DNA of 64,000 bases from Chiloscyllium plagiosum (lineage: Eukaryota): contig NC_057718.1 in the NCBI RefSeq assembly GCF_004010195.1, forward strand, positions 54,882,497-54,946,496. Reading direction: 5' to 3'. The notes beneath the pieces were generated by a model that worked only from the letters and a program-made list of their open reading frames with translations, had not been told where the DNA came from and did not search any database. Made by a program: the position numbers and the translations under genes. Below are positions 2,540 to 63,479 of the stretch, one piece after another; positions within the stretch are counted from its first letter, which is position 1, and each line of letters begins with the position of its first letter.

Positions 2540-2640
2540 GTAATAAAACAGGAAGTGCTGGAGAAGCTCGGCATGCCTGACAACACATATGGACAGAGAA
2601 ATATAGTTAATGTTTGAGTTCAAAATGATACATCTTCAGA
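2540..2640 (-). mobile_element. PLE terminal-repeat fragment (family C), degenerate hammerhead
   Basis: Similar to 52715-52850 and 13055-13250. Confidence 0.6.
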
Positions 2641-3170
2641 ATTTTGAAAAAATGCTTCCTCTTGTAGGAGCATCTGGAACCAGGAGTCACTGTTTAAGAA
2701 TTATGGGACACCCATTTAAGACAGGAATAAGCAAAATTTATTTCTCCCAGAATGTCGTTGGTCTGTTACTCTGTTCCCCAAAAGAAGTGCAAGGTGGTAG
2801 AAGCAGAGTCTTTGAATATTTTTAAGGCAGAGGTAGATTGTGGATGAGCAAAGAGGTGAAATGTTAGTGAAGATAGGCAAGAAGATGGTGTAACCAGATG
2901 AAAATGTGTTGCTGGAAAAGCGCAGCAGGTCAGGCAGCATCCAAGGAGTAGGAGAATCGACGTTTCGGGCATGAGCACTTCTTCAGGAATGAAGAAGGGC
3001 TCATGCCCGAAACGTCGATTCTCTTGCTCCTTGGATGCTGCCTGACCTGCTGCGCTTTTCCATCAACACATTTTCAGCTCTGATCTCTAGCATCTGCAGT
3101 CTTCACTTTCTCCTAGGTGTAACCAGATGAACTATGATCTTATTGAGTTGCAGAGCACACTTCTGCTTCT
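2641..3170 (+). mobile_element. CR1 LINE 3' fragment interrupted by a PLE hairpin insertion
   Basis: EKMLPLVGASGTRSHCLRIMGHPFKT..YFSQNVV; continuity restored across the TSD at 2887-2902/3116-3131. Confidence 0.8.
2903..3115. mobile_element. Self-inverted mini-PLE (family A) with hammerhead motifs
   Basis: About 85-bp near-perfect inverted arms; 16-bp TSD ggtgtaaccagatgaa; minus strand reads ctgaaga-a-gtgc-tcat-gccc-gaaa-cg-tc. Confidence 0.85.
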
Positions 3171-3399
3171 AATTAAAATGTTTGCATGTGTACTTTGCAT
3201 TGTTTATATAATAGATGTGACAGGTTTAGAAGGTGCTATCAAAGGAACCTTGGTGAATTACTGTAGTGCAATTTGTAGATGGTACTCCGTGCAACCATAG
3301 TTCGTTGGTGATAAGGAAGTGAATAGTAAGGTGATGAATGGGGCACTAATCAGTCAGCTTTGTCCTCCGATGCTTTACAGGACCCAAGATCAGACATCT

Positions 3400-3890
3400 T
3401 TGATACAAAAAGCATATAAAGAATTATTAACTAATTAAAAGAAGGGCCAAACATGTGGGTTTTAAGAGGCACTTTAAAGGAGAAGTGCGACAGTGAGCTT
3501 TAGGAAAGAAATGCAGAGTTAGCACCTAGTCGGCTGAAAGTATGGCCACCAATGATGGGCAATATTATGGGAATGTGCAAAAGGCAGCAGTTGGAGGATC
3601 ACAGAGATCTTAAAAATCACATAACATTAGGTTATAGTCCAGCAGGTTTATGTGGAAGCACTAGCTTTTGGAGCACTGCTCCTTCATCAGGCAACGCTGT
3701 GAAAACTAGTGCTTCCAAAAAAATCTATTGGGCTATAACCTGGTGTTGTGTGATTTTTAACTTTGTGCACCTCAGTCCAGCACCATCTTCTCTAAATTAC
3801 AGAGATCTTGGAGAACTCTGGACAGAAGGAGTTTAAAAAATATGGAGGGACAATGTATGCAGGGGTTTGAACGAGGACAGCATTTAAATT
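3400..3890 (-). mobile_element. L2-like LINE 3' fragment interrupted by a PLE hairpin
   Basis: Degraded LINE 3' sequence resembling 45600-45780; split by an 11-bp TSD. Confidence 0.5.
3612..3798. mobile_element. Self-inverted mini-PLE (family B) with hammerhead motif
   Basis: Inverted arms; 11-bp TSD acagagatctt (3601-3611/3799-3809); identical family to the terminal repeats of the GIY-YIG element at 41120-43245. Confidence 0.85.
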
Positions 3891-6700
3891 AATAGATGGC
3901 CAAACTGACATATGAGACATTAATTTTTGAAGCTCCTGACGTAGCATGTTCAAGATGATTTTGGTAGATTATTTCATATTTTGCACCCATACCAATACCA
4001 TGGTTGAAGGGGTAGGCAGGTGACTTCCTTGTAGGCATACCTCATTGTTATTTCTGAACTGACATTTAGGTGATATCGCCAGAGGGGCAAAAAGATGCTG
4101 TTTGTTTTAACAAAATCACTGCAGTAAAGGTACCTTCTCTGCACTAAATGTGCATTTTAATTGCATTGGATAATTAGATGTTCAAATCACCTTTTTTGAC
4201 TGCCTTCCTGATTTTTCAGCTAGTATATAATATACAGGTAGGTTAACTTATACAATTTCCACAGCTTCAGGTTCTTCTCTCAGATTCATATTCATTGAAA
4301 TGGTAAAGAATCTTTCATTTTTAAGTCCATGTAATGACAGAGTAAAAACTAAGCTATTTTCTGTAACCAGAAATGGAAACTTCATAGTTTAATATTCAAT
4401 CCACTGTGCCTTTGGCCCATTAACTTTGGACAGCTATTAGTCTGTACTTGACCTAATCAATAAAATATACTTCAGTTAGTGCTTAGAATTCCTATTAGTG
4501 CTGCGTTAGGCCTTTATATCTGTTCTCTGTCCAGAGATATCTAAGTTATTTTCACGAAGTGTCAAAAGCTGTGTGACTGTTGAAGACACCTGACACTTTT
4601 AAAGTCAAAGCTTTAAGTGGAGGAATGATAATGATGATTGGAAAATAAGGCTGATAGTAAGAAAACAAGATCAATCATCTTAAACACGAAGAGCAGCTGC
4701 TTGTGTCTTACGTATGTGACATTTGGTTCTGAAAGCTCCTGGTCACACCCAGAAACTAGCAGCTGCTGGCATTGTGATTATACTGGGGGACTTCTGGAAT
4801 GCATGTTGCTCCATCTGGTTATGTCCACAAATCTCCAGAGTTTAATAATGCTCTTTTATATTGTACTATAAATCTCTAACTAAGATTGAAGCCAATTTGG
4901 ACTCCTGGAATATTTGTTACTCAGAATGTTTTGTATTCCAAACACATATCAGACTCAGCAGGCTTGCCTGAACCCATCTCCACATTTGCCGTTGCTCAGA
5001 ATGGAGATCAAAAATTCCCTTTGGATTCTAGGAATCTATCACACATGGACTTTGCAGTCATTCTTGCTTTTATTTCCTTCTCCAAAAAGAGAGAAGGAAA
5101 TATTAGATTAAATATGAATTTATATTTAAGCAAGGCTGTTTAATCACTGGAGCAATGGTCAGTGAACGTCATTAACGTACAAGTCATCTGTGTAACAACT
5201 AACAAAAGCTGCTTAAGTGTTAGAAAATGCAAGGTAATAAATTAGCAGATGGAGTATAAGATTAATGGAAAAATGCTTACTTATATCCATCCACTCTTTC
5301 ACTGATGCAGTGCCAATGCAGTATGTACAATTTACAGCATGCACTGAAACAAATCACTCAGGTTACTTTGACACAGCTTAATTTCAAGCCCCCTTCCCCC
5401 ACCTACCAAAATCTCTTGCAGGGGGAAGAGTAACAGTGTCATGGAAATAACTTTGCTTCTGAGTTACTCATCATTCAGACTTTACTTCCATCCCTTTGCT
5501 CTTGTTAAGTTGCTATCCTATATTCCATTGTGAGAGCACTGCCAGCGCAAGAATACTTCTTATTCTTTCATGGGGAGAGCTAGCATTTGTTGCCCAACTC
5601 TAATTACTCTTGAGAATGTGGAGCTTTGCAAAGAGAAGGACAGTCATCACTTTCTCCGTTCAGTAATACTAGGCAATAAATCGGGCATTGTCAGTGTTTC
5701 CCAAATGCCAAGATCCAAGTATTCAAACAAAATCTCATTGTTTCCCTTTGTCATTCAGCTGGGAACAAAACATGTTCTCGCTGTCTATTGACAAACTTCA
5801 GCCAGTTATTCTCTGAACTGATACATTTGTGACATCATTCTTTCCAGTGTTGAGAAATCCCAGATGTATTCTAACGAATTCAAGCATAGGTGTTTTATTT
5901 TTTAAAATCCAATTAAGTTTCCAAGTAGAACAGGAATTGATTTCATTAGAGACTGTTGAAATGTTAGAAAACTTTTGTTTAGAAATGGTACTTCAATGAA
6001 ATTATTGAAAGGTTACAATGCTTTTCCTGTTTAAACAAGTTCAGTAATTACTGCACTGCATTTTGAAACAAATGGCAGATTATCCAGCAAAACAACAGTT
6101 GCAGGTTAGTAACAGAGTATTGTGACTGAATTTAAAATGTTCTCATGCTGGGCCTTCTGATATTGTCATTACAGCTCGCTGGGAAGTTATCATTGAGGCT
6201 ATTGAAATTTGATCAGATTTTTGAATTTCTTGATTAGTGTTTTCTCTGAGTTAGCTCAGATGAAAGCAGCAGTTCAGACAATACACTTATCTTCAGTAAC
6301 TCTGTGCTTCAATGGATAAAATTTACAAGGACCGCTACATCGGAAGATTGTGCAGCAATGTCCGTCTGCTGCACCTGTTGTGTAAAACACTTTGATAGAT
6401 ATTGGTTGGGAACCGAATTATAGCCAAGAGTGATGTTTCATATTTGAATAGCTCACCAGCCTTTATTGCTTACACATGAAGATGATCACATACTAAGGGA
6501 ATGAATGGTACCTGTAACCTGTAAATGTAAATGGATCCTACAGAAAGGAATAATAAGAAAATAAAACAAGAAGGGCACGTATTTACGCATTGTATAAAAT
6601 AATTCATAATTTATGAAGTAAATAAAAGCAGTAACTCCAAAACCAGTGGTTTATTTTTAAATATACTTTTTATTCTTCCTCATAATCTGACATCAATGGA

Positions 6701-9324: not shown

Positions 9325-9775
9325 CAGTGATGTGACACAGTGGCTCAATGGTTATCACTGTTGCCAGGGACCCGGGATCGATTCCAGCCTCAGGCAACTT
9401 TCTGTGTGGAATTTGTACATGCTCCCTGTGTCTGGGTGGGTTTCTTCCGGATGCTCTGGTTTCCACTCACAGCCTAAAGGTTTGCAGGTTAGATGGATTG
9501 GCCATGCTAATTGCCCATAGTGTCCAGGGATGTGCAGGATAGGTGGATTACCCATGGGATTCCTGAAGAAGGGCTCATGCCCAAAACGTCGATTTTCCTG
9601 CTCCTTGGATGCTGCCTGACCTGCTGCACTTTTCCAGCAACACATTTTCAGCTACCCATGGGAAATGCAGGGTTACAGGGATATGGGTTTGGTTAGGATG
9701 CTCTTTGGAGAGTTGGTGTGAGTTTCATAGGCTGCATGGCCTGCTTCTACACTATAAGAATTTTATGATTCCATG
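9325..9775 (+). mobile_element. V-SINE (older subfamily) containing a PLE family A insertion
   Basis: tRNA-like head, V-domain and CR1 tail; split by TSD tacccatggga. Confidence 0.9.
9560..9652 (+). mobile_element. PLE family A terminal fragment with hammerhead motif (GAAA changed to AAAA)
   Basis: ctgaaga-a-gggc-tcat-gccc-aaaa-cgtc; 11-bp TSD tacccatggga. Confidence 0.8.
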
Positions 9776-11463
9776 AGTCTTCAACTGGCCTCCAGCTTAT
9801 AAAGGCCAACTTCATTCTTAAATGGAAGCTACATTAATTGAAAGGAGACTGTTGCTGATTGATTGTGCCGCAATTGCAGATTAGGATCATGGAGCACCAA
9901 GACAGAGAGATTCATGACTGTGGAACTGGATGCTTTGGTTGTGGAGCTGAACAGGTGGTAAGGAACTATTTTTTTTTCAGGTCAGGAAGCCTGGAACAGG
10001 TGACCAAGGTGATCAACTTCCAGAGTCTGACCTCCAGGACCTGGTATGAGCATCACAAGAAGTTTACTAACTTTCAAGCTCAGTAAATACATCTTCAGAG
10101 GACATCTTCACCTAATATATCATCATGGACCTCCTGTTTTACACCCTAGCTAACTTTCTCCAGCGTGGTACCTACATATATTGCATAGATTCTGTTCACT
10201 ATGGAGCCATATTTTACAGTCAGGTCTCTGAATATTAGTTTGCCATTCATGCTATCACCACCACCCAACAATCTACCCAGCTAATGACCGGCCATTTGCC
10301 CCAAACATTCCTGAAGCCAGTGATATGTTTGCTCACCTCAAGAGCCATGGGTTCTATCTTGGATCTTTGCCCACAAAGTCTTTCATGCTGATAACGAGAC
10401 CAGAGATCTAATATGGGGTGCACTTTGAATGTTACCGTTTAAATCAGTGATTGTATCCTGCATACCCTTATTTCTAAGCTTATGTGTTAACACTGTCTCT
10501 CACTTCAGTTGGTTTCATGTTCTATTTTAAAGAAAACCTTTGGCCGTATTGAATATTGTGGACAAAATGTTCTTTTTTCAGAGTACTGTAAAGTCACTAC
10601 AGCTTCTTGATGAGCAACATGTACTAACAGTTTCATATCACTGAATGCAACTAAGGTTTCTCAACACAACATCTTTGACATCATTCATTTCATCTGGTTG
10701 CTGATGATTGATGCAGTAGGACCTTAGTGTGATGTGGAGTTGTTTGCAGCTACAGGCACTCCACCCTTCCAGCTGCAGGAAATCATGCTGAAGCAGGATG
10801 TCCCGTGAGGAAAACACTGGATGAAAAGCAAGCAAAACATTTCTCTTTACCCTTAGTGAAAGTGACTAAGGTCTACAGAAAACTTGCATATTTAGGAGTT
10901 TTACATCTTGGCAATAGATTTTAATTTACATTTTTGAAAAAGGGAAGACTTGCATTTATACAGCAGCTTTCACAAATAAAACATATCCCCAACCTTCTTG
11001 AAAGTGGTGAAAATGTCCAATCAATATTCAACTGTCATTATTTGATTTTAAAACCTGAGACTTTGATGAACTAAAAGTGATTTTGAAAAGGGCAATTATG
11101 ACATATAATGGCTGCAGTGATCACCTGACAAGTCTAGGCAACCCACATGGAAATATACAACACAGGCTGCATCAAAATTTACCATTTTAGCCAAGAGGTC
11201 CTGAGACTCAGTGAGGCATCAAAAAGATCACGTTGCTTGTTTTCCTCACACTTCTATGATGCATATAATGACTGATGAAAGTTTGCCTGTACCTACCAGC
11301 TTGAAATCCACAATAGAACTGTTTATCAACAGAGGCCTTTCAGCAGCAAAGGATGAGAGACAACATTGTGGAATCATAATGGTAAGAATAAGAAAGCTCT
11401 TCTATCCTTATCTGAACCTCACAAAAAAAACCACACACAGTGAATAGGTAACTTGAAGCAACT

Positions 11464-11676
11464 TTCTGGATTAGTGGTGCTGGAAGAGCACAGCAGTTCA
11501 GGCAGCATCCGAGGAGCAGTAAAATTGACGTTTTGGGCAAAAGCCCTTCATCAGGAATCGGCTTTTGCACGAAACGTTGATTTTACTGCTCCTCGGACGC
11601 TGCTTGAACTGCTGTGCTCTTCCAGCACCACTAATCCAGAATCTGGTTTCCAGCATCTGCAGTCTTTGTTTTTACC
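11464..11676. mobile_element. Self-inverted mini-PLE (family A variant)
   Basis: About 80-bp inverted arms; 14-bp TSD aacttgaagcaact (11450-11463/11677-11690); minus strand reads ctgatga-a-gggc-tttt-gccc-aaaa-cgtc. Confidence 0.85.
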
Positions 11677-11811
11677 AACTTGAAGCAACTGTTCAGTGAG
11701 AATTCAAGATCTACAAACCATGCCAGTGCTGATGAAACAAGGCAGTAGTCTGGGCTCAGTCTTAAAATCCAGCATCTTAAGGATACTTCAAACTTCAATG
11801 TCTTTATCTGT

Positions 11812-13054: not shown

Positions 13055-13250
13055 ATAATAAAACAAAATACTGGGGATGCTCGAAATCTGAAACAAAAAC
13101 AAAAATTATTGGAGAAACTCAGCAGGTCTGGCAGCATTGTAGTGAGAAAACTAAGTAAATGTTTCAAGTTTAGTGACCCTTGAACAGAAGAAGAATCACT
13201 GGGCTCGAAACATGAATTCTGTATCTCAAGCAATTTCTTTTCTTGTATTT
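13055..13250. mobile_element. PLE family C terminal repeat, partly self-inverted
   Basis: aaaacaaaatactggggatgctcgaaatctgaaac..cagcaggtctggcagca..gaagaagaatcactgggctcgaaacatg. Confidence 0.65.
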
Positions 13251-17889: not shown

Positions 17890-18325
17890 GAGCTATAGGG
17901 AGAGGCTGAATAGGCTGGGGCTGTTTTCTCTGGTGTGTCAGAGGCTGAGGGGTGACCTTATGGAGATTTATAAAATCATGAGGAGCATGGATAGGGTAAA
18001 TAGGCAAGGTCTTTTCCCTGGGTTGGGGAAGTCCAAAACTAGAGAGCATAGTTTTAAGGTGAATGGGGAAAGATATAAAAGGTACCTCAGAGGCAACTTT
18101 GTCATGAAGAGTGAATGATATGGAATGAGCTGCCAGAGGAAGTAGTGGAGGCTGGTACAACTACAGTATTTAAAAAGCACCTGGATGGCTATATAAAGGG
18201 GAAAGCTTTAGATGGATATGGGCCAAATGCTGGCAAGTGGAACTAGATTTATGTGGGATATTTGGTCGGCATGGACAAGCTGGACAGAAGAATCTATTTC
18301 CGTGCTGTATATTTCCATGACTCCA
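17890..18325 (+). mobile_element. HER1/CR1 LINE 3' end
   Basis: RLRGDLMEIYKIMRSMDRV..GLFP..KTREHSFKV followed by the HER1-type tail. Confidence 0.9.
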
Positions 18326-19959: not shown

Positions 19960-20060
19960 TGGAAAAAGCAGATTATTGCAGTTCCTGATAATTTGAAATA
20001 TGAAGATGTTGGAAATGCTGAGCAGGTCCGGCAGCATTTGAGAGAAAAACAGAGTTAACG
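19960..20060 (-). mobile_element. PLE family C terminal fragment
   Basis: gctgagcaggtccggcagcatttgagagaaaaacagagttaacg. Confidence 0.6.
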
Positions 20061-30710: not shown

Positions 30711-30863
30711 ACCCCATCCCGTACTTTCCTCGGGAACCTGTGTCCCACAACCTGAGCTGCCTCCAGAATTTTAGTTTTGTCCCTTTTAGGGACATAAAAC
30801 AGCAGGCCCTGTATCGACTGCTGCTGCACTCCGTCCACCTCTTCTCCCTCATCCACCGTCCGG
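30711..30863 (+). mobile_element. Tx1/L1-clade LINE ORF2 fragment running into the assembly gap
   Basis: HNLSCLQNFSFVPFRDIKQQALYRLLLHSVHLFSLIHRP resembles the Tx1-type region preceding the C-terminal zinc-binding domain. Confidence 0.6.
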
Positions 30864-31363
30864 NNNNNNNNNNNNNNNNNNNNNNNNNNNNNNNNNNNNN
30901 NNNNNNNNNNNNNNNNNNNNNNNNNNNNNNNNNNNNNNNNNNNNNNNNNNNNNNNNNNNNNNNNNNNNNNNNNNNNNNNNNNNNNNNNNNNNNNNNNNNN
31001 NNNNNNNNNNNNNNNNNNNNNNNNNNNNNNNNNNNNNNNNNNNNNNNNNNNNNNNNNNNNNNNNNNNNNNNNNNNNNNNNNNNNNNNNNNNNNNNNNNNN
31101 NNNNNNNNNNNNNNNNNNNNNNNNNNNNNNNNNNNNNNNNNNNNNNNNNNNNNNNNNNNNNNNNNNNNNNNNNNNNNNNNNNNNNNNNNNNNNNNNNNNN
31201 NNNNNNNNNNNNNNNNNNNNNNNNNNNNNNNNNNNNNNNNNNNNNNNNNNNNNNNNNNNNNNNNNNNNNNNNNNNNNNNNNNNNNNNNNNNNNNNNNNNN
31301 NNNNNNNNNNNNNNNNNNNNNNNNNNNNNNNNNNNNNNNNNNNNNNNNNNNNNNNNNNNNNNN
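30864..31363. other. Assembly gap (500 N)
   Basis: Run of N. Confidence 1.
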
Positions 31364-33279: not shown

Positions 33280-34095
33280 TTATTGACAAATATACTCAAT
33301 AAGGATAATGAAAAGTTTATACAGCACCATCTTCAGTACAAAGGTACCGAGGTACAGCTTCTTTAATTTCGAGATCTTAGACAATCGAGAAATAAAGTTG
33401 TGTCCAGTGTTGCAGAAATTAAAATTCAGAACAACAAACCACGCTGGCACCAGCTTTCTGGGTGCTGGCTCCAGACTGCACCGGGCTTCACCTTGAGGAT
33501 CATGAGGCTGCAAGACTGCTTCAGACCGCCACGCTGGGCTGAGAGAACACCATGCCAGGAGGCCGCTACAATAGACAGGGAGACCACTATGCCATGCATG
33601 TACTTCACCACGCCCAGCTGGGAGGCCTCTGCGCCCGGCCGGGAGGATCACCGAGCCACACAGGGAGGTCTCTGCATTGGGAGGATCACTGAGCCACGCA
33701 GCGAGGCCTCTGCGCCCGGCTGGGAGGATCACTGAGCCATGCGGGGTGGCCTCTGCCCCAGGCTGGGAGGATCACTGAGCCATGCAGGGAGGCCTCTGCA
33801 TTGGGAGGATCACTGAGCTACACGGGGAGGCTACTGCACCAGGCCAGGCAAATCATTGAGCCATGCAGGGAGGTCTCTGCGCTAGGTCAGGATGATCGCT
33901 GAGCCATGCAGGCAGGCCGCCGCGGCAGGCTGGGAGTCGCTGGAGACAGGGGGTTATCCAAGGCTGGAAGTCATCATCTGAGGCTGGAAGTTGTCAAAGC
34001 TGGAAGCCAAGACTCATCGAGAGAAGAAGAAAAACACTAAGTGGGGAAAAAAAGAGCTCCGGCTGGACCATCCTACTCCACAGCCATCCTGGATC
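33280..34095 (-). mobile_element. Non-coding, non-autonomous retroelement with an internal GC-rich minisatellite and a Rex1-like 3' tail
   Basis: Minus strand starts caggatggctgtggagtagg and ends ..gtactgaagatggtgctgtataaacttttc..tgtcaataa. Confidence 0.55.
33620..33935. repeat. Minisatellite of 43/38-bp units
   Basis: Units gggaggcctctgc..gggaggatcactgagccatgca start at 33620, 33663, 33701, 33744, 33787, 33825, 33868 and 33911. Confidence 0.9.
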
Positions 34096-34965: not shown

Positions 34966-35177
34966 TTAACACCATATCTAAGAGATGGCGCGTCCAGCAA
35001 TGTATTATTCCTTCCATACAGCACAGAAATATAGATATAAGAGAATATTAGTGATTTAATTTATTCTCCAAGCCACTGATAATGTATGTAATATAAAATT
35101 GAGATTTTTGAAATAATGCCTCTACAAATATGAAATCTATATGTTAGCAAGCCACACTTTGAGCTGATTCATAAGGT

Positions 35178-35264
35178 GAAAGTGCTTATGCCTGAAATGT
35201 CGATTCTTCTGCTGCTTAGGGGCTGTCTGACCTGCTGTGCTTTTCCAGCACCACACTCTTGACT
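35178..35264 (+). mobile_element. PLE family A terminal fragment
   Basis: gtgcttatgcctgaaatgtcgattc..ctgacctgctgtgcttttccagca; 14-bp TSD ctga(t/c)tcataaggt. Confidence 0.75.
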
Positions 35265-36419
35265 CTGACTCATAAGGTCACAGCTATGGAACATGAACAG
35301 ATAAATCTGAAAATTATCAGTAAGTCAGGCATCATATCTTGTTAGAGAAACAAAGTTAATGGGTTTGATTTTCAGTCCTAGGTAGGGAATCCAATACTAC
35401 TTTGAAATGTTCAGCTATTAATTGGGCCAAAAATGAGCCATGGCACCCAATTCTGGTGGCAGGTGCTGTGTGCAGGTGGGTATTGCTCTAGATTGCAATG
35501 CTCATAGACACATGGCAGCCATGACAGGGAAGCCTTAGGAGATCACAGGGCCAGCAGTATCACAGGTCATACAGATGGCCAAATGGTTAATCCAACGCAC
35601 TTAATGCACTCTGGTTGAATCCTGCTATTTTTCCATTGCATTTTATTTATCAGGCACATTACCAAATGGTCCTACTCTTTGCTCATGTCAAATTACCTCT
35701 TGTGTAAAACAGCACATTCACTTTTCCTGACATACAATTTTAAAAACCTCTTCTGCCTTTGCAGCCCATTAAAAAGCTTTTTGAGGAGTTCAGCAGGACA
35801 TTAATGGGAGGTGCCAGCATCCCCGTCCACCACACCTCTCAAGTATTCTTGCTTTGAATGTAATGTTGCAGTCTAGAGATGTTGGAAGACTGACATGCTA
35901 TTCAGGAAGTCTATTTTTGAAGTGCATCTATACCCAAGGTCAAACAGAAGGACATTTGAAAATCTAGTCCAAAGTCCACATCTGTGAGCCTCCTTCAGAA
36001 CTTTAGGATCTGATATTCACTGTCAGTCTCTTCATTTTCCTCCTCCTCTTTGTAACTATTATTTACTGTACTGTTGGCTTGCCTTCTGTTTCTGATTTAA
36101 TGGGCTAACCATCAGGTAGCTTCTGAAATCTGAGAATTCGTGTTTCCTTCAGACGTTGTTTTTGAGAGGCAAGGTATCTTATTCTACTGGCAAGATGAGT
36201 TGAGAAGATTACACTAAACCATTGTATGGAGGAACAGACGAAAGAAGTTCAAATGGGAACTGTGAAAATAGGAAACATTGTAGTACAGGATCCCTTTTCC
36301 ATTCAGGACTCTTTTATGATGCAGATTTTCAGAATCTGTTGAAAGCAGAAGGATAATTGCACAATTTCAAAATACTGCTGCAATCACTGCTGAAGTCCCT
36401 TCCTAGACATTGATTGCCA

Positions 36420-40139: not shown

Positions 40140-40370
40140 AGAAATGGAACAAAAACAGAAAATGCTGGAAACGTTCATGAGTTCAGACAGCTCTTTTGGA
40201 GAGAATACATGAAGTAATATTATGGGCGTTGACCATTTTGCTTGGATAAAGCATCTCTGCCCAAAACATTAACTCATTTGTTCTTTCCACTAATGTTACT
40301 TGACCTGCTGAATGATTCCAGCATTTTCTGTTTTGGTTACAGGTTTCCGGCTTCTGAAGTTTTTGTTTGA
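40140..40370. mobile_element. PLE family C remnants in inverted orientation
   Basis: aaaacagaaaatgctggaa ... ttccagcattttctgtttt inverted arms. Confidence 0.55.
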
Positions 40371-41119
40371 CTCCAGGAATTACTTTGACTAGTGTGTTAA
40401 ACACAGTACTAAAAGATTCTTACAGTACCATTACTATGAGAGGGAAAGGCAGAACTTGAAATGATAAAAGCCATTTTGAACACAAAATAGACTATTGGAT
40501 TAAAATTTTGTAGAAGTATTCATTTATTATCTAACATCAGTAGTTTATCCAGGATTTTAAGGTCAATATAGTATTTGATCAGTTAGGAAAACAAAAGGTA
40601 GGAGAAGCTAACAAATCTTAGGGGCCAATGAATGTGTGTCTTAGGAAGCTCCAGGATCAAAGGATAAAATGTATTGGAGACTGACTTTGACAGAGGGGAG
40701 TCATTGGTGATGTGCTACAGAACTGAAATGAGGTTAATGAAATATCAGGCAAATTTAAATTTTAAATCCAATGGGCCCTCAATTTAAAATCAATAGCTAC
40801 TAAAATAAGGTATTCTATTCTGAACTAGAGGACTATCTACATAGGAACAATTAAAAAGAAACAGCTGCCGTGATTTAGGTGGAGATCATCTTTACTGACT
40901 TCTAGGCTATTGTGGTGCAGTGGTAATGCCCCTACCTCTGGCCCAGGTTTATGTCCCGCCTGCTCAAGAGACGTGTCAGAACACCTTCTGAACAGTTAGA
41001 TTAAAAATACCTCCTGTCTAATGTCTTTGAGACAGATAAATTCTGTCTCTTGATAGATCTAGATTTTCAGAATGTTTTTGACAGTTACTTGAACATAAAT
41101 TAAGTTAAAAACCATGTTC

Positions 41120-42660
41120 AAAATCACACAACACCAGGTTATAGCCCAACAGGTTTATTTGGAAGCACTAATTTTCGAAGCACTGCTCCTTCGTCAGGTA
41201 GTGGTGAAGCAGGACCAGAAGATGCACATGCAGGAGAGAGAGAGTGTGTGCATGAGAATGTGAATGCACGTAAGAGAGTGAGTGTTTGCGTGTGTGCAAA
41301 CTTGGTAAACTGTGTGTGAGTGTGATGGGGTACAAGTTTGTGAGAGCGTGCATGTGTGAGTGTGGGGTGTGTATGTGTGTGTGTATATCTGAGAGAATGT
41401 GTATGAGAGAGGGTCTGCGTGAGTATGTAAGAGTGTTGGTGTATATGAGAGAGTGTATAGTGTAGTTGGGTCACCTGTAGTATGACATAAATCCAAGGTT
41501 CTGGTTGAGGCCATCCTCTTGGTCACTGAACTTGGCTACCAGCCTCTGCTCGGCCACTTTGCGTTGTTGCCTGTCCCGAAGTCCGCCTTGGAGGACGGTC
41601 ACCCAAAGATCCGAGGCCAAATGTCCCCGACTACTGAAGTGTTCCCCAACTGGGACACGTGAAGGTGCTCAAGGATGCCCTCATAAGAACAGGGTACGAT
41701 GCTCAACTCATCAATTACCAGTTTCGATGTGCCACAGTGAGAAACCGTAATGACCTCTTCAGGAGGCAGACACGGTTGCAACCGACAGGGTACCCTTCGT
41801 TGTCCAGTACTTCCCAGGAGCCAAAAGAGCCTTGTTCTTCGCAGCCTGCAACACATTATCGGTGATGAGCACCTCACCAAGATCTTCCCGACACCTCCAT
41901 TTCTCGTCACTTAACAACCAGCAAACCTTAAACAGATCATTGTTAACAGCAAACTGCGCAGCCTTCAGGACAACGTCGGTCACAACACTGTACAACCCTG
42001 TCATGGCAACCACTGCAAGACGTGTCAGAATGTCGACACAGATACCACCATTACATGTGGGGACACCACCCACCATGTACACGGCAGGTACTCATGTGAC
42101 TCCGCCTACTTTGTCTATCTCAGGCAGCAGGCAAGAATGCCCTGAGGCATGATACATTGGCAAGACCAAGCAGACACTACAACAACAGATGAATGGACAT
42201 CACGCAACAATCACCTGACAGGGGTGTTCCCTCTCAGTCGGGGAACACTTCAGCGGTCAGGGACACTCGGCCTCGGATCTTTGGGTGACCGTCCTCCAAG
42301 GCAGACTTTGGAACAGGCAACAACACAAAGTGGCCGAGCAGAGGCTGATAGCCAAGTTCGGTACCCCATGGGGATGACCCCTCAACTGGGACCTTGGGTT
42401 CATGTCACACTACAGGTGACCCCATTACAGTATACACTCCTATTCACACACACTATTGCATACTCGCACACTCAAGCAGACCCTCTGTCATACACACGCT
42501 CTCTCTGAAACACACACACACACATACATATCCACACACTCACACCCACACATGAACCCTCGCATAGGCTTATACCCTTTTCACACTCACACACACACTT
42601 TGCCAAGCTTCCACATGCAAAAACACTCTCACTCTCATGCACACACTCACATGCGCGCAC

Positions 42661-42694
<34 letters not shown>

Positions 42695-43245
42695 GCATGT
42701 GTAAACACGTATAAGTCTATGGGGTGAATTTGTATTTACAGAATAATATTTACAGATACATTTTGTTTTGCTCAAAAAATGCACAACCTGCAGGCAGTTA
42801 ATGCATGCAGTCAATCCATGTAATATTTTGTAAATTCCACTATAGAAATCAAACCAGTCTGACTCAAGATTGGGATACAGACAGACTCTAACCTCACACC
42901 TTTAATACATTGAGCTGAGATGTCACCTTTTTTTATAAAATCTCATGTTATCTTGAAAATGTGGCTTAAAAGAAGTTCTGGGATTTACATAATAATGAAC
43001 CAAAACCTGCAACTCATTCTAAAAGGTCAAAGACTTAACAGCAATCTAGGTTTGTTCAACATATCATTTCAGTTGCATGCACTGTAATCTTTTGCTATAA
43101 ATACTGTGTCTTATGGTCCTGCTTCTGATGAAATAGCAGCGTTCTGAAAATTAGTGCTTCTAAATAAACCTGTTGGACTATAACCTGGTGTTGTGTGATT
43201 TTTAACTTTATCCACCCCAGTCCAATGCCAACTCCTCCAAATCAT
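41120..43245 (+). mobile_element. Penelope-like element (family B), 5'-truncated with an inverted 5' duplication
   Basis: GIY-YIG coding remnant, (CA)n-rich 3' region, terminal repeat with hammerhead at about 43124-43155; 41120-41655 is an inverted copy of the 3' part; imperfect TSD catgtt(c/t)aaa. Confidence 0.92.
41657..42420 (+). pseudogene. PLE ORF C-terminus: RT thumb, Cys/His linker and GIY-YIG endonuclease (disrupted)
   Basis: LKDALIRTGY..; PCHGNHCKTC..YSCDSAYFVY..YIGKTKQTL..MNGH..VGEHF..H..AEQRLIAKF; stops and frameshifts present. Confidence 0.9.
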
Positions 43246-43344
43246 GTTTAAACACCACAGCACTCCCCACAGCACTGAATATGATGCTGGGTGACAAATC
43301 TGTTTAAAAAAGGGAAGAAATGTATTTGTGTGCAATATCTTACA

Positions 43345-43440
43345 ATCGATGAAGGGTTCATGCCTGAAACGTCAACGCTGCTGCTCCTTGGATGCAGCCT
43401 GACCTGCTGTGCTTTCCCAGTGCCATACTTTTCAACTTTT
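43345..43440 (+). mobile_element. PLE family A terminal fragment
   Basis: gatgaagggttcatgcctgaaacgtc..ctccttggatgcagcctgacctgctg. Confidence 0.75.
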
Positions 43441-45780: not shown

Positions 45781-46934
45781 TTAAGTTGTTCAGGAAGGCA
45801 TCTTGTATAAGCATATTAAATTCAACTGTGCATATAGAGTAAATTAAATGGATCTACCTTTGTGTGGCCTGCATGGAAATGTTTGGGGTTGCTGTGTAGC
45901 CACACACCTTCGAGGAAATATTGTGATGGATGAATGAGAATTAATATTAAGATAGGATAGGGCAGCAGGATTTTGGTTCAACTTAAGTTTATGGAGAGTG
46001 AAAACTTCTCCATCAAATTGGAAGACTTTGCCCAAAATGAATTTCCTTCCTATCTATCTATCTCTAAAGTTATAGTGCCATTTTTATGTCATAACATAAC
46101 TACAGGTTTAAATTAAGACACGGAGAGCTTTTCAACTTGTGCAATGTTTGTATTTTTGGTTAATCAAAGGCAACTAGATTGAATTGCATTTATAAAAAAA
46201 AATAAACTTTACAGCCATTACAGCACAAATATTTCACCTTGATACAGTGTGGTGAACAGTTTTACTGAGAGCTGAACTGGAAACTAATTGGCAGTTAGGT
46301 TTGCTCTTTTGTCACATATCACAGGAGTGCCAAAGAAAACCATGAAACCTGGAACATTATCAGGTTGTAAAAAAGTGATAGTTTACATGATTTACGCTTG
46401 CATGCTTTGTAAGTTCATATACAATACTTCAGAGTTCAACTTTGACCTCCAGTTGTAATCAAATTCAAACTGGAATATCCCTGCTGGTATTTTTAAGTTA
46501 AATCTGTGCTTTTCTGACCATCTCTAATGAGGCTTATGAAAGGCAAAAACACTTTGAAGTGTGATGGAGAATTTATGGTATCATAGCCTATCAAGCTGAC
46601 TAGAGTGAGAATAATGGGCTTGGATATTGATTTCTCCCCAAAAATGCCTCACGTCACCCAAATAATCATGGAGAACCAAGAAGTGCAGCACTCCCCAGCA
46701 AAACTTCTCCCAGTTCAAATGGAAGTAAGTACATTTCCCAAGCTCTCCTTATTTCCTGACTCAAAGATTCTCTCTTTTTTTTCAGTCCGATGACTACAAT
46801 GGCTCCACTCAAATTTTTTTCCAGCCTCCACCAAATCATTTGCAATTAGAGATGTTGAGTATGAAGTCCTCATTTCACTTTTTAGAGGTGCTGAAATTAA
46901 AGAACTGAAAGCAACATTCCCATTCTAAAAGATG

Positions 46935-47130
46935 AGAAACTTAACAAACAATCCAGGTCTTTTTTAATATATAATTTCAATTACATAACACTGTAAACTT
47001 TTGCTACATTCTGTGTCCTACGATCGTATACTCCACAACCACCTGATGAAGGAACAGTGCTCTGAAAGCTAGTGCTTCCAAATAAACCTGTTGGACTATA
47101 ACCTGGTGTTGTGTGATTTGTGATTTACTT
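46935..47130 (+). mobile_element. PLE family B 3' terminal repeat
   Basis: Colinear with 43030-43210. Confidence 0.85.
47040..47074 (+). ncRNA. Minimal type-I hammerhead ribozyme motif, core intact
   Basis: cac-CTGATGA-a-ggaac-agt-gctct-GAAA-gc-TA-gtg: helix I cac/gtg, helix II with one mismatch, palindromic AGCT at helix III. Confidence 0.7.
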
Positions 47131-47869: not shown

Positions 47870-48230
47870 GAGGTGACCCAGGTAATATTCTGGGGACCTG
47901 GCTTCAAATCTCTACCATGGCAAATGATAGAATTTGAATGCAATAAAAAAAATAGAATTAATAAACCATAAAACCATTGTCAGTTGTTGGAAAAACCCAA
48001 CGGTTCGACTAATGACTTAACAAACAGTCCAGGTATTTTTCAATATATAATGTCAGTTACATAACACTGTAAACGTTTGCTACATTGTGTCCTATGATCT
48101 TATACTGCACAACCAACCTGATGAAGGAGCAGAACTCAGACAGCAATGTGGTTGACTCTTAACTGCACTCTGGTTAATTAGGGTTGTACAATAAATACTG
48201 GCCTAGACAGTGATGCCCACATCCCATTGT
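47870..48230 (+). mobile_element. tRNA-derived SINE with a CR1/L2-type tail, interrupted by a PLE family B fragment (48012-48136)
   Basis: ggggacctggcttcaaatc..atggcaaatg..cagcaatgtggttgactcttaactgc..aataaatactggcc; the insert ends cctgatgaaggagcag. Confidence 0.75.
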
Positions 48231-52391: not shown

Positions 52392-52510
52392 AGTTCTGAA
52401 AAAGAATTATATCACACCTGAAATGTTAACTCTCTTTGTCTCACCACAGATGCTGCCAGACCTTACTAACTTTCTTCAACATTTTCTGTTTTTATTTTAT
52501 ATTTTTTGAA
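52392..52510 (+). mobile_element. PLE family C terminal repeat
   Basis: gttctgaaaaag..tgaaatgttaactctc..cacagatgctgccagacc. Confidence 0.7.
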
Positions 52511-52714
52511 TCTGCAGTATTTTGCTTTTATGCAGTTTTATCCTCCTCTTCTGAATAGCTGCTAAAAGGGAGCAGGTCCATTCATTTAATATTGTAGGTC
52601 AGGCTCCAACCAGGTCCTCAGGACCTAGCTGTGAAGGGGAGATGACCCACAGGGTAGCTGAGTTTTATTTTATTTGCTTTCTTGTTGGCCTGGAGGAACA
52701 GGAGTTTTATCCAT

Positions 52715-52850
52715 AATAAAACAAAGAACTGCGGATGTTGAAAATCTGAAACAAAGACAGAAGTTTCTGGAGAAATTCAGCAGGTTTGACAGTATCTGTA
52801 GGAAGAAAGCAGAGTTAACATTTCAAGTGCAGTGACTCTTCATCAGAAGA
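52715..52850 (-). mobile_element. PLE family C terminal repeat with hammerhead motif
   Basis: Minus strand tt-CTGATGA-a-gagt-cactgc-actt-GAAA-tg-TT-aac. Confidence 0.8.
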
Positions 52851-55290: not shown

Positions 55291-55644
55291 TAAAACAAAA
55301 ATAAATTAGTGTTCTGGATTATGTGTTAGACAATTCTGTGTGACAATTGAGATGTGACAATTGTATTTCATTTCGTGGGGAGGCAATATTTATTTTTAAA
55401 TGGCTGAAGCGTCTTTTTAGGACAAAAACCAAGACTCCTTGATAAGAGTAGATAACTATTCGTGCTATGCAAGTAATCAATATCCATATGCACTATGGCT
55501 TGTTCCACACGGTGACAAACTGGAAAGTAAATTTGAAAATTTGACAGAAAAGGTGTAGCCTTTTCCTGATGTATGACTCCTCGGACATTTGTAATTGTTT
55601 AAAAATACTTTACCCTAATTAGCATTCTTTGTCAACGACTGTTT

Positions 55645-55760
55645 TTTGCCCAAAACATTGATTTTCCTGCTCCTTGGATACTGGCTGACCTGCTCTGCTT
55701 TTCCAGCACCACTCTAATCTTGACTCTGATCTCCAGCATCTGCAGTACTCATGTTCACCA
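55645..55760 (+). mobile_element. PLE family A terminal fragment
   Basis: tttgcccaaaacattgattttcctgctccttgga..tctgatctccagcatctgcag. Confidence 0.75.
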
Positions 55761-55994
55761 AGTAAATGTTAACAGGCTATTATATCCAAGCCTGATTTCA
55801 TCCTCATGCAACAGCACATGTGGTTTTGTTCCCACTTTAACTATTTGCTAGGAATTAGAAGTAACAAACATACCTTATCTTTCCCTTCCTTTGATGAGGA
55901 TATTGAGTGCAGTTAGTGTTTCCATCAGCTGGCCTGATTATGATCAAGGTACTCAAATCAAAATCGATCATCTATTTCCTGGACTTCCTGACCC

Positions 55995-61674: not shown

Positions 61675-63204
61675 TTTTGTGATTAGAGTACCTGAATAGC
61701 ATTCCATGTGCAAAGTGTCTATTTACATAATTACAGCTGGAATGGTCTTTTGAACTGGTTTCTATCACCTAAGGAATTCAGAAAGTGGTTTTCCAGATCT
61801 TTTCTTCCCTAATTGGACTGGGTGCTTATCTTTCTTTTGACGCTCACATGGCTTTTGGATGAAATGAGATGGTGTAGATGTATATATTATGAAGTAGACA
61901 GTACAGTTTAAGGGGACAAGCTGGAAGAGCCAGTTGTTAGTATAGCAAACTGACAATGCAAGAAGGGCTTCTTGCTTTCAATTGTATTTTTTTCTGTAAG
62001 GTGCAATATTGTTTCTGGTGAAGTTGTCTGTATAATTATTTCATTGCTACATTACTGTTGATAAATAAACTTCTTGAAGTTGAACATTTTTTGAAATTGT
62101 AAAGTATCTCTCATTTGAGTTGGTCTCTACAGCAAAATGAGTGCGCTGAATTTATGAAAGTCTGTAGTTATCCACATAAGCATAATATTTAATTTGCACA
62201 TTCTGATCACAGAAGACATTGCACATAGTTAGCAATATATTTCAAGAGCTTCTTTAGATTTTACTTTTCAATGCCACATATATGATCCATGCCAGGATCT
62301 TGTATGTGGATAAGTCTGAAGACCAGTTGCCAGGGAAGACTAAAAGGGTAACTCACTTTGGCCAGGGTAGGAAAGTTGGTGATTGTAGATTAGCTATGTG
62401 TCTGTCATACATACCACTCGATTTTCCTTTCCATTATATTCATTGATCTGCAGCTGTGAGTTTTCTGCCCATATCCAAAATGGAAATTAACCCATTACAT
62501 TCTTGAGAGAAACCATAACAGAGCTATGCATACTTTTGCAGCCAGACTTGAGATTTGCCTCGAGAGATTGCTCTCTCTGTCTTTGAAGGTTACAGCTGCA
62601 TTGAATATTTTTACAGAAGGGTCTTTATAGGCAACCTTTGGAGACCTCTGTCACATTTTTAAAATTCCGTCCACAATTGTATCACACAAATCAGGGATGT
62701 ATTTTAGCCAGGGCCAATAAAATTAACTGTTTCCCTTTGGAAAACAACTGACATAGGATTAAATTTTCCACTCCTGTCATGTTCCACGGAGTACGAGACA
62801 TATTTGACTATATGCACGTTACACAATGATGGTGCATTCATGAACACAAAGAGCTAAATTCATGTGAATGTGGAGCTGTTCTGTGACCACTTTGCATGTA
62901 TAGCCAATCCAAGAACATGTTGAACAAAATAAGACAAATGAAAGAAATACCAGATATACAGTTGGAGTTTGTCAGCAACAGCAGCTGAAGAGGAAGACAA
63001 ATTACTGTTCGAAAGGTTAAAGTGCAGGTAGAGTACAGTGTATTTTTGGCTATCCATTTGAAACTTCTAATGGTCGTACAGGGGCCATAGACCCCTATTT
63101 AAAAATGCCTGTGCTAAGTCACAGCAGGAGATTCTATCATTTAGTTTCAGCCATTTACCTCAGCTACCAGGAAATTGGCTTTGAAATCAACCAGTAACTA
63201 TCCC

Positions 63205-63413
63205 TGATATGGCGATGTCTGTGTTGGACTAGAGTGTACAAAGTTAAAAATCACACAACACTAGGTTATAGTCCAACAGGTTTAATTGGAAGCACTAGCT
63301 TTCGGAGTGCCGCTCTTTCATCAGGTGGTTGTGGACACAGCCAACTGATGAAGGAGCAGCGCTCCGAAAGCCAGTGCTTCCAATTAAACCTGTTAGACTA
63401 TAATCTGGTGTTG
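63205..63413. mobile_element. Self-inverted mini-PLE (family B) with two divergent hammerhead motifs
   Basis: Inverted arms; TSD agtaactat(c/a)cc (63193-63204/63414-63425); + arm ctgatga-a-ggagc-agc-gctcc-gaaa-gc-ca; - arm cac-ctgatga-a-agagc-ggc-actcc-gaaa-gc-ta-gtg. Confidence 0.85.
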
Positions 63414-63479
63414 AGTAACTATACCATCAGTATGCTTCTCAGTCTTATGTAGAGTGATGGAACATGTCATTAACAGCAT

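Follow-up and report, generated by a model that had tools for sequence, protein, structure and literature searches.

The window, by which we mean the whole 64,000-nucleotide stretch of Chiloscyllium plagiosum DNA that was analysed (NC_057718.1, positions 54,882,497 to 54,946,496), contains four short fold-back insertions, E1 to E4, each 187-213 bp long and each lying where the preliminary description had placed it (Table 1). They have a common layout. An exact target-site duplication (TSD) of 9-16 bp encloses two inverted arms which are 83-95% identical, a tail of 35-51 nt is present on one side, and a hammerhead motif is central. Positions within the arms are counted from the first C of the hammerhead core (+1) and were entered by hand from the alignments.

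As had been proposed, two families are represented: family A includes E1 and E3, family B includes E2 and E4, and BLAST links the arms within each family and none between them. E1 and E3 are of different subfamilies, and in each of them both arms are of its own subfamily type. Local alignments gave arm identities of 95% over 83 columns in E1, 83% over 57 in E2, 93% over 82 in E3, and 89% over 78 in E4. TSD lengths of 16, 11, 14, and about 12 bp had been reported; the first three are exact, but the repeat of E4 is exact over 9 bp only and reaches 12 bp with one mismatch. When random spans of 185-260 nt were taken as a chance control, an exact flanking repeat of at least 11 nt was found in none of 5000 and of at least 9 nt in three of 5000. 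The extra tail had been given as 35-45 nt, which holds for E1 (43 nt), E2 (40 nt), and E3 (35 nt) but not for E4, where the excess is 51 nt because the short arm stops 10 nt early. Each family has two preferred 3′ ends, one with the tail and one without it, and the arms are joined head to head.

A double-stranded RNA stem had been predicted for these units and, as a folding prediction, this is correct: modelled RNA folds have z of -21 for E1 and -11 for E2, and none of 200 shuffled sequences folded equally well. The predicted loop of E1 has 4 nt, is of the GNRA type, and is closed by a templated pair. In five units, changes compatible with G-U pairing on the plus versus the minus strand numbered 22 to 11, which is not significant as a sign of selection for pairing (p 0.08). 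The hairpin units also give six sub-threshold Rfam matches to miRNA hairpin models, far below the gathering scores. In annotation such hairpins may be mistaken for MITEs or miRNA precursors.

Table 1. Fold-back units, their relatives, and the RNA processing signals, in window coordinates; signed positions refer to the hammerhead core.
Feature	Position	Strand	Details
E1 left TSD	2887..2902	.	16 bp, exact repeat of 3116-3131
E1 inverted tail-less arm	2903..2990	-	Family A pLTR end, -4 to +84, core at 2986
E1 direct arm	2990..3115	+	+2 to +127, including the 43-nt tail (about 3073-3115)
E1 right TSD	3116..3131	.	16/16 match
E2	3601..3809	.	Family B; insert 3612-3798; 11-bp TSDs (14 with one mismatch); arms: inverted 3612-3691 (-1 to +79), direct and tailed 3691-3798 (+12 to +119)
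Family-B AAUAAA and poly(A) addition sites	3632..3652	-	AAUAAA at +39 to +44, mutated in E2; sites at +56 and +59; RNA reads from other copies
Solo family-A copy	9549..9663	+	Non-inverted, tail-less, -5 to +90, TSD 9-11 bp
E3	11450..11690	.	Family A; insert 11464-11676; TSD 14/14; arms: inverted 11464-11559 (-5 to +91), direct and tailed 11560-11676 (+10 to +126)
Solo family-A copy	35164..35278	+	Tail-less, +6 to about +92, TSD 14 bp with one mismatch
E5, old fold-back	40145..40380	.	Third family (C), distant relative of A; arms about 73% identical; no TSD found
Long family-B PLE copy	41114..43245	+	540-bp inverted tail-less arm (41114-41655), then direct 1.6-kb copy
Solo family-A copy	43348..43437	+	No clear TSD; 5′ end near the core (uncertain)
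Solo family-B copy	46921..47119	+	Reaches -122
Family-B fragment	48010..48144	+	From -108, cut at +27
Solo tailed family-A copy	55644..55762	+	Start about +13; no TSD found
E4	63193..63425	.	Family B; insert 63205-63413; element on minus strand; arms: tailed 63205-63335 (-11 to +120), inverted tail-less 63336-63413 (-9 to +69)

Relatives in the window and parent elements

Profile and BLAST searches of the window found eight family-A and eight family-B arms in 11 insertions, that is, the four mini fold-backs, six solos (two with clear TSDs), and one 2.1-kb copy. The solo copies, the long inverted copy, and E5 had been overlooked in the preliminary description. Older copies of family C, hammerhead-type and related to A, lie at 52415-52531, 52713-52850, 13055-13200, 19965-20059, and 2545-2617. 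The first two of these were considered as a further fold-back and rejected, as they stand tail-to-tail and 180 bp apart. The solo family-A copy at 9549-9663 interrupts a tRNA-like SINE-type repeat.

The mini units share their layout with the long family-B copy, which bears an open reading frame. Its direct part consists of a broken C-terminal part of the reverse transcriptase (RT), a CX4CxxC linker, a remnant which we take from its motifs to be of the GIY-YIG type, the 3′ UTR, the hammerhead pLTR, and the tail. A 76-residue piece of the broken frame has 67-81% identity to six of seven candidate proteins, one of which has an RT domain. The family-B pLTR thus ends a direct copy whose broken frame matches proteins with RT and endonuclease-type sequence; a Pfam search of the ORF fragments of the window gave nothing above cutoff. 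The C-x4-C-x2-C motif, found in the frame at 41915-42142, corresponds to the CX2-5CxxC linker between RT and endonuclease, which marks the Neptune and Nematis clades according to the passages on clade structure in PMC8557442. Because of the ORF matches and of this linker motif, family B is identified as the putative terminal part of a Neptune-type PLE, its clade being assigned by the linker. No ORF-bearing copy of family A occurs within the window, and its proposed link to PLEs is drawn from its architecture and motif.

In the inverted arm of the long copy (at 41198-41225), about 415 bp of the direct copy (42702-43115) are missing; a short TG-rich microhomology, located immediately upstream of the hammerhead, marks the join. 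This difference may be due either to a template jump during synthesis or to a later deletion. The direct part, in turn, lacks 9 nt of the helix I region. At its end the family-B tail (43236-43246) has an ATG with A at -3, which is also present in loose-end consensus lines of the mapped public runs; the ORF of the complete element may begin with this ATG.

No loci turned up when viral contigs, metagenome contigs, and GTDB genomes were scanned for exact patterns of the family A and B arms, which is expected for a vertebrate repeat and is evidence neither way. Among other features of the window are a 247-codon open frame at its start (64-807), whose first part recurs at 18134, a GC-rich minisatellite with units of 38-43 bp (33604-33936), and an assembly gap of 500 N (about 30860-31360). 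The open frame, for which Pfam gave no match, presumably resembles the C-terminal part of a CR1/L2-type LINE ORF.

Hammerhead motif, 5′ ends, and polyadenylated RNA

Both families appear to carry a minimal type I hammerhead motif, read from the alignments as two core boxes, a palindromic helix III stub, and a short helix I, with one extra base ahead of helix II. An Rfam scan of the units gave no hammerhead match, and the folds of the hammerhead monomers are mostly unremarkable (z below -2 in one of five). Most copies are decayed, and in three of the four units the junction cuts one of the two cores. The scissile bond, placed by the motif, would lie at +29 in family A and at +30 in family B. 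The pLTR hammerheads of PLEs are characterized in the relevant sections of PMC4209133 by the core boxes, an extra nucleotide before helix II, palindromic positions 15.2-16.2, and a helix I of 3-5 bp; core boxes, extra nucleotide, helix III, and helix I are the same here. These sections, dating from 2014, also note dual motifs on opposite strands 100-700 bp apart and many solo motifs from truncated PLEs, whereas the two motifs of our units are adjacent.

A breakpoint hot-spot at the ribozyme had been suspected. This is borne out for the 5′ ends, which cluster at the 5′ edge of the hammerhead: 12 of 16 arms (8 of 11 insertions) begin within -11 to +13, two of the family-A solo ends being uncertain. 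It does not extend to the contig joints listed, in which the inverted arms end at +29 to +66. Under a rough, assumed null, the probability of such a pile-up is 2e-4 if 20% of ends are expected in the interval and 4e-3 if 30% are. The pile-up is not absolute, since three of the 11 insertions run far upstream, to -108, -122, and beyond. Family-B contig records which leave the reference at -1 (442-643 per species) agree with one another for about 13 further letters before agreement is lost, so that many family-B copies end near -12 to -15. The pile-up sits 16-40 nt upstream of the scissile bond and is therefore no cleavage product; ribozyme cleavage was rejected as the cause of the junctions, as none of the 16 arms starts at +29/+30. 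This would agree with the in vitro result for anole Poseidon, whose RNA was used as substrate in uncleaved form, with no reads starting at the site of cleavage (PMC11167929). The pile-up may already be visible in Fig. S2 of that paper, which deals with the ends of genomic copies.

The RNA data came from one poly(A) library of one sample (about 2% of the run), with 4288 reads mapped. Sense family-B RNA is polyadenylated at +56 and +59: poly-T loose ends stand before 3632 and 3635 in 370 and 274 of the 4288 reads, and first-mate depth at these ends is 780 on the plus strand versus 105. The AAUAAA is restored at 3652 in 1018 of 1029 such reads. The two sites lie 12-15 nt past this hexamer and ahead of a GU/U-rich stretch, and the local DNA is not A-rich. 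Both usual insertion ends of family B (+79 and +120) are 20-60 nt downstream of them. A transcript ending at +56/+59 cannot template these ends; priming must therefore have occurred on a read-through copy of the pLTR, the simplest candidate being the 5′ copy in a partial tandem, which is also where the anole RT starts. This geometry suggests priming near the RNA 5′ end followed by run-off. According to the passages on transcription in PMC6765202 and PMC2377424, transcripts of PLEs begin within the upstream pLTR. Our RNA reads also extend at least 25 letters upstream of -1.

The loci from which these RNAs derive may be host transcripts borrowing the signal of a copy, and host RNA is possibly affected by family-B copies which supply a used poly(A) signal. 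Depth was zero in the unique-flank bins of the locus in this one RNA run (about 2%), which says nothing firm on expression. The preliminary description had suggested looking for A-to-G editing; in a blunt test no signal appeared, A>G plus T>C relative to transversions being 0.54 in RNA versus 0.49-0.50 in DNA (p 0.58).

Origin of the fold-back units

The preliminary description offered two alternatives, independent ultra-short products of PLE inversion or a self-propagating unit of MITE-like or retrozyme-like kind. The former is supported by the facts that all four centres differ, that solos exist, and that the joints in public contigs of three species are of 797 distinct kinds. The latter is not supported: within-family centres never match, the outer ends are ordinary PLE ends, and tandem repeats are absent. 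Centres in family A are -4/+2 (E1) versus -5/+10 (E3) and in family B -1/+12 (E2) versus -11/-9 (E4), so neither of the two within-family pairs in the window shares a central junction. MITEs, which are class II elements, have symmetric terminal inverted repeats at both ends, a fixed short TSD, and a uniform family sequence. In our units one end is an unpaired tail, the TSDs are of unrelated sequence, and the centres are different. Head-to-tail tandems, as in retrozymes, were not seen either, all copies being inverted pairs or solos.

Three public contig sets from three species and the RNA run, four of 24 listed runs, were mapped to 2600-4100 at 85% identity, with 91,172 to 116,026 contigs mapped per DNA run. 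The contigs gave 797 distinct joints, of which 15 are listed, each with 1-10 contigs per run. Among 24 listed pieces (of 301,357), four bridge the centre of E1 by a 31-letter rule. All four represent other loci, 9-12% different (8-13 substitutions), and each has 3-4 gap letters, which fits micro-heterogeneous centres. Several of the 15 listed joints recur in two or three runs at a contig depth of 140-530, far above single-copy. Microhomology of 2-4 nt was present in four of nine family-A joints versus 16% expected (p 0.04), after dropping 2991-3072, which is inside one arm, and two backward joints. Recurrent joints could reflect microhomology, or they could belong to small propagating subfamilies. 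Effects of a decayed, palindromic reference were taken to account for the family-B joints from 3689-3691 to 3733-3737 and for the opposite-strand joint 3636/3739, which were left out.

In our judgement each unit is probably an insertion that was dead on arrival and was produced by an autonomous, endonuclease-positive PLE, the shortest case of a known inverted-copy pattern, and the fold-backs are most likely built anew at each landing instead of copying themselves. The GIY-YIG endonuclease would make staggered nicks 9-16 bp apart, which would give rise to the observed TSDs. Both nicks would then prime reverse transcription at two fixed internal start sites on the pLTR RNA, with and without the tail; the fixed 3′ ends are observed, and we infer the priming from the in vitro work on anole Poseidon. 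Synthesis of both cDNAs would end once they are 80-130 nt long, on reaching the 5′ edge of the hammerhead in its uncleaved form, where the pile-up is seen; the probable reason is that the template RNA starts there, or otherwise that the RT stalls on the ribozyme stems. Finally, the 3′ ends of the cDNAs would be joined head to head, through a template jump or end joining; microhomology at the four centres is 0-1 nt. New joining on each occasion would make every centre new, and fixed ends would keep the unit size nearly constant. With two antisense cDNAs, one per nick, the 5′ ends of the element meet in the centre while its 3′ ends come to lie at the TSDs, and the palindrome would be a product, not a replicating unit. 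The anole protein nicks and extends both strands, has two internal starts bracketing the tail, and is predicted to be a dimer (PMC11167929). How PLEs form tandem and inverted structures is called undefined in the part of PMC8557442 devoted to them.

What other origins can be considered? The units may also be independent PLE products whose second arm is self-primed: a strand would fold back at its 3′ end and be copied, the endonuclease later trimming one tail. It is in favour of such self-priming that both arms of each unit belong to one subfamily, that the E1 loop has the form described above, and that the tailed arm of E4 contains its short arm, which makes E4 compatible with snap-back. Self-priming on an antisense template is, moreover, the reading given to rotifer PLE palindromes in the corresponding passages of PMC3846280. 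We nevertheless find it unlikely. The arms of E1-E3 are not nested in one another, as the tail-less one extends 6, 13, and 15 nt beyond the tailed one in the 5′ direction. The tail could not have been copied from the arm without it, nor could the extra 5′ letters have been copied from the tailed arm. These offsets fit two cDNAs from opposite nicks better than snap-back of a target-primed cDNA. At the four centres only 0-1 bp of complementarity would be available for priming, and the fold-back in E4 would require a loop of 2 nt.

Another explanation is a self-propagating, non-autonomous fold-back, whose palindrome would be transcribed, either from promoters of the host or from its own, and then inserted again in trans by a PLE protein. 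The near-constant unit size, the share of mini fold-backs among the insertions of both families (4 of 11), and the joints which recur across species at high contig depth could be explained in this way, and rotifer pLTR sequences suffice for mobilisation in trans according to the passages on them in PMC3846280. We consider it distinctly improbable given that all four centres differ, that no units are in tandem, and that TSDs vary in both length and sequence. The best-supported differences of E1 from other copies are one-sided, with none mirrored among the rows listed (269 more exist), and an 80-bp stem would sequester the ribozyme and the RT start sites. Assembly artefacts or chance pairs of adjacent insertions might be suspected, as none of the listed contigs spans a whole unit and the window has a 500-N gap elsewhere. 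This is hardly credible when a single TSD pair encloses both arms, the arms are 5-17% apart, the same one-sided tail layout is found in all four units, and contigs of organism C enter E2 from both unique flanks, 47-50 nt deep.

Returning to insertion by an endonuclease-positive PLE, we tentatively consider a more detailed reading in terms of strong-stop cDNA. The RNA might start 5-15 nt upstream of the core, which would make the pLTR LTR-like with an R region; in family B the RNA end might be the poly(A) site 56-59 nt downstream of the core. It is conceivable that the RT primes in the 5′ pLTR copy beyond the poly(A) position and runs 80-130 nt to the RNA 5′ end, and a jump to the 3′ pLTR copy would perhaps be required for continuing into the ORF. 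Solo stubs and fold-backs could then be trapped strong-stop cDNAs, a fold-back possibly arising from two cDNAs made by a dimeric RNP on two nicks and joined. If this speculative reading is true, the abundant stubs are a genomic record of the PLE replication cycle.

The element itself is ordinary, a minimal form of a published PLE insertion pattern. In the accounts of insertion structure in PMC8557442, PMC3846280, and PMC8969392, units of endonuclease-positive PLEs have a 5′-truncated copy, an adjacent inverted copy, a one-sided tail of 30-40 nt, and a variable TSD. The head-to-head layout, tail, and TSDs of our units are the same as in these accounts (Arkhipova et al. 2013, PMC3846280; Craig et al. 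2021, PMC8557442), where the inverted pLTR of rotifer Pen2a is also offset by 15 bp from the direct one at the junction. Unlike the published units as they are presented there, ours contain only two inserted pLTR ends (about 200 bp), and their 5′ ends lie at the hammerhead edge. In the openly accessible literature we found nothing on this size class, twin priming, or strong-stop products in PLEs.

As is proposed for our units, the RT of anole Poseidon (Frangieh et al. 2024, PMC11167929) has two starts, one on either side of the tail, about 110 nt beyond the hammerhead. Poseidon belongs to a clade other than that of family B with its Neptune/Nematis linker, and the passages of PMC11167929 consulted do not treat inverted insertions or cDNA end positions. 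Metazoan non-LTR retrozymes are likewise non-coding, type I hammerhead-bearing, and PLE-related, with TSDs longer than 4 bp, but as described in the parts consulted they form head-to-tail tandems with a hammerhead per unit and are expressed as circles, whereas our units are head-to-head with minimal motifs (PMC7229834; bioRxiv 10.64898/2026.07.22.740005).

The value of the units is in the hint that they give on where RNA copying starts and stops. In twin priming of L1, two primers at opposite nicks produce a 5′ inversion inside one TSD pair. The two parts of such an L1 insertion derive from separate stretches of a single RNA, whereas the arms of our units are both copies of one and the same stretch, so two RNAs or two passes are needed. 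With tens of thousands of two-ended stubs per genome, junction counts could separate the two-cDNA, snap-back, and strong-stop models.

Some contigs bear on the presence of E1 and E2 in other alleles. A contig of the same species (organism A) starts exactly at the first base of the right TSD of E1 (3116), and a contig of organism C has 78 unaligned letters left of 3118. E1 may be absent in organism C, and an empty allele may exist in the same species, which would be odd given that the arms are already 5% apart. At E2, one contig of organism B matches the left flank as far as 3600, after which come 30 letters unaligned to E2; on the right side 3817-3827 is covered by three contigs of this organism and 3834 by one, and a further contig begins at 3804. 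These contigs suggest that organism B has an allele which skips E2. Flank divergence is 4.7% for organism C versus 2.5% for organism B, and the more distant organism C carries E2; a secondary loss of the palindrome in organism B is possible.
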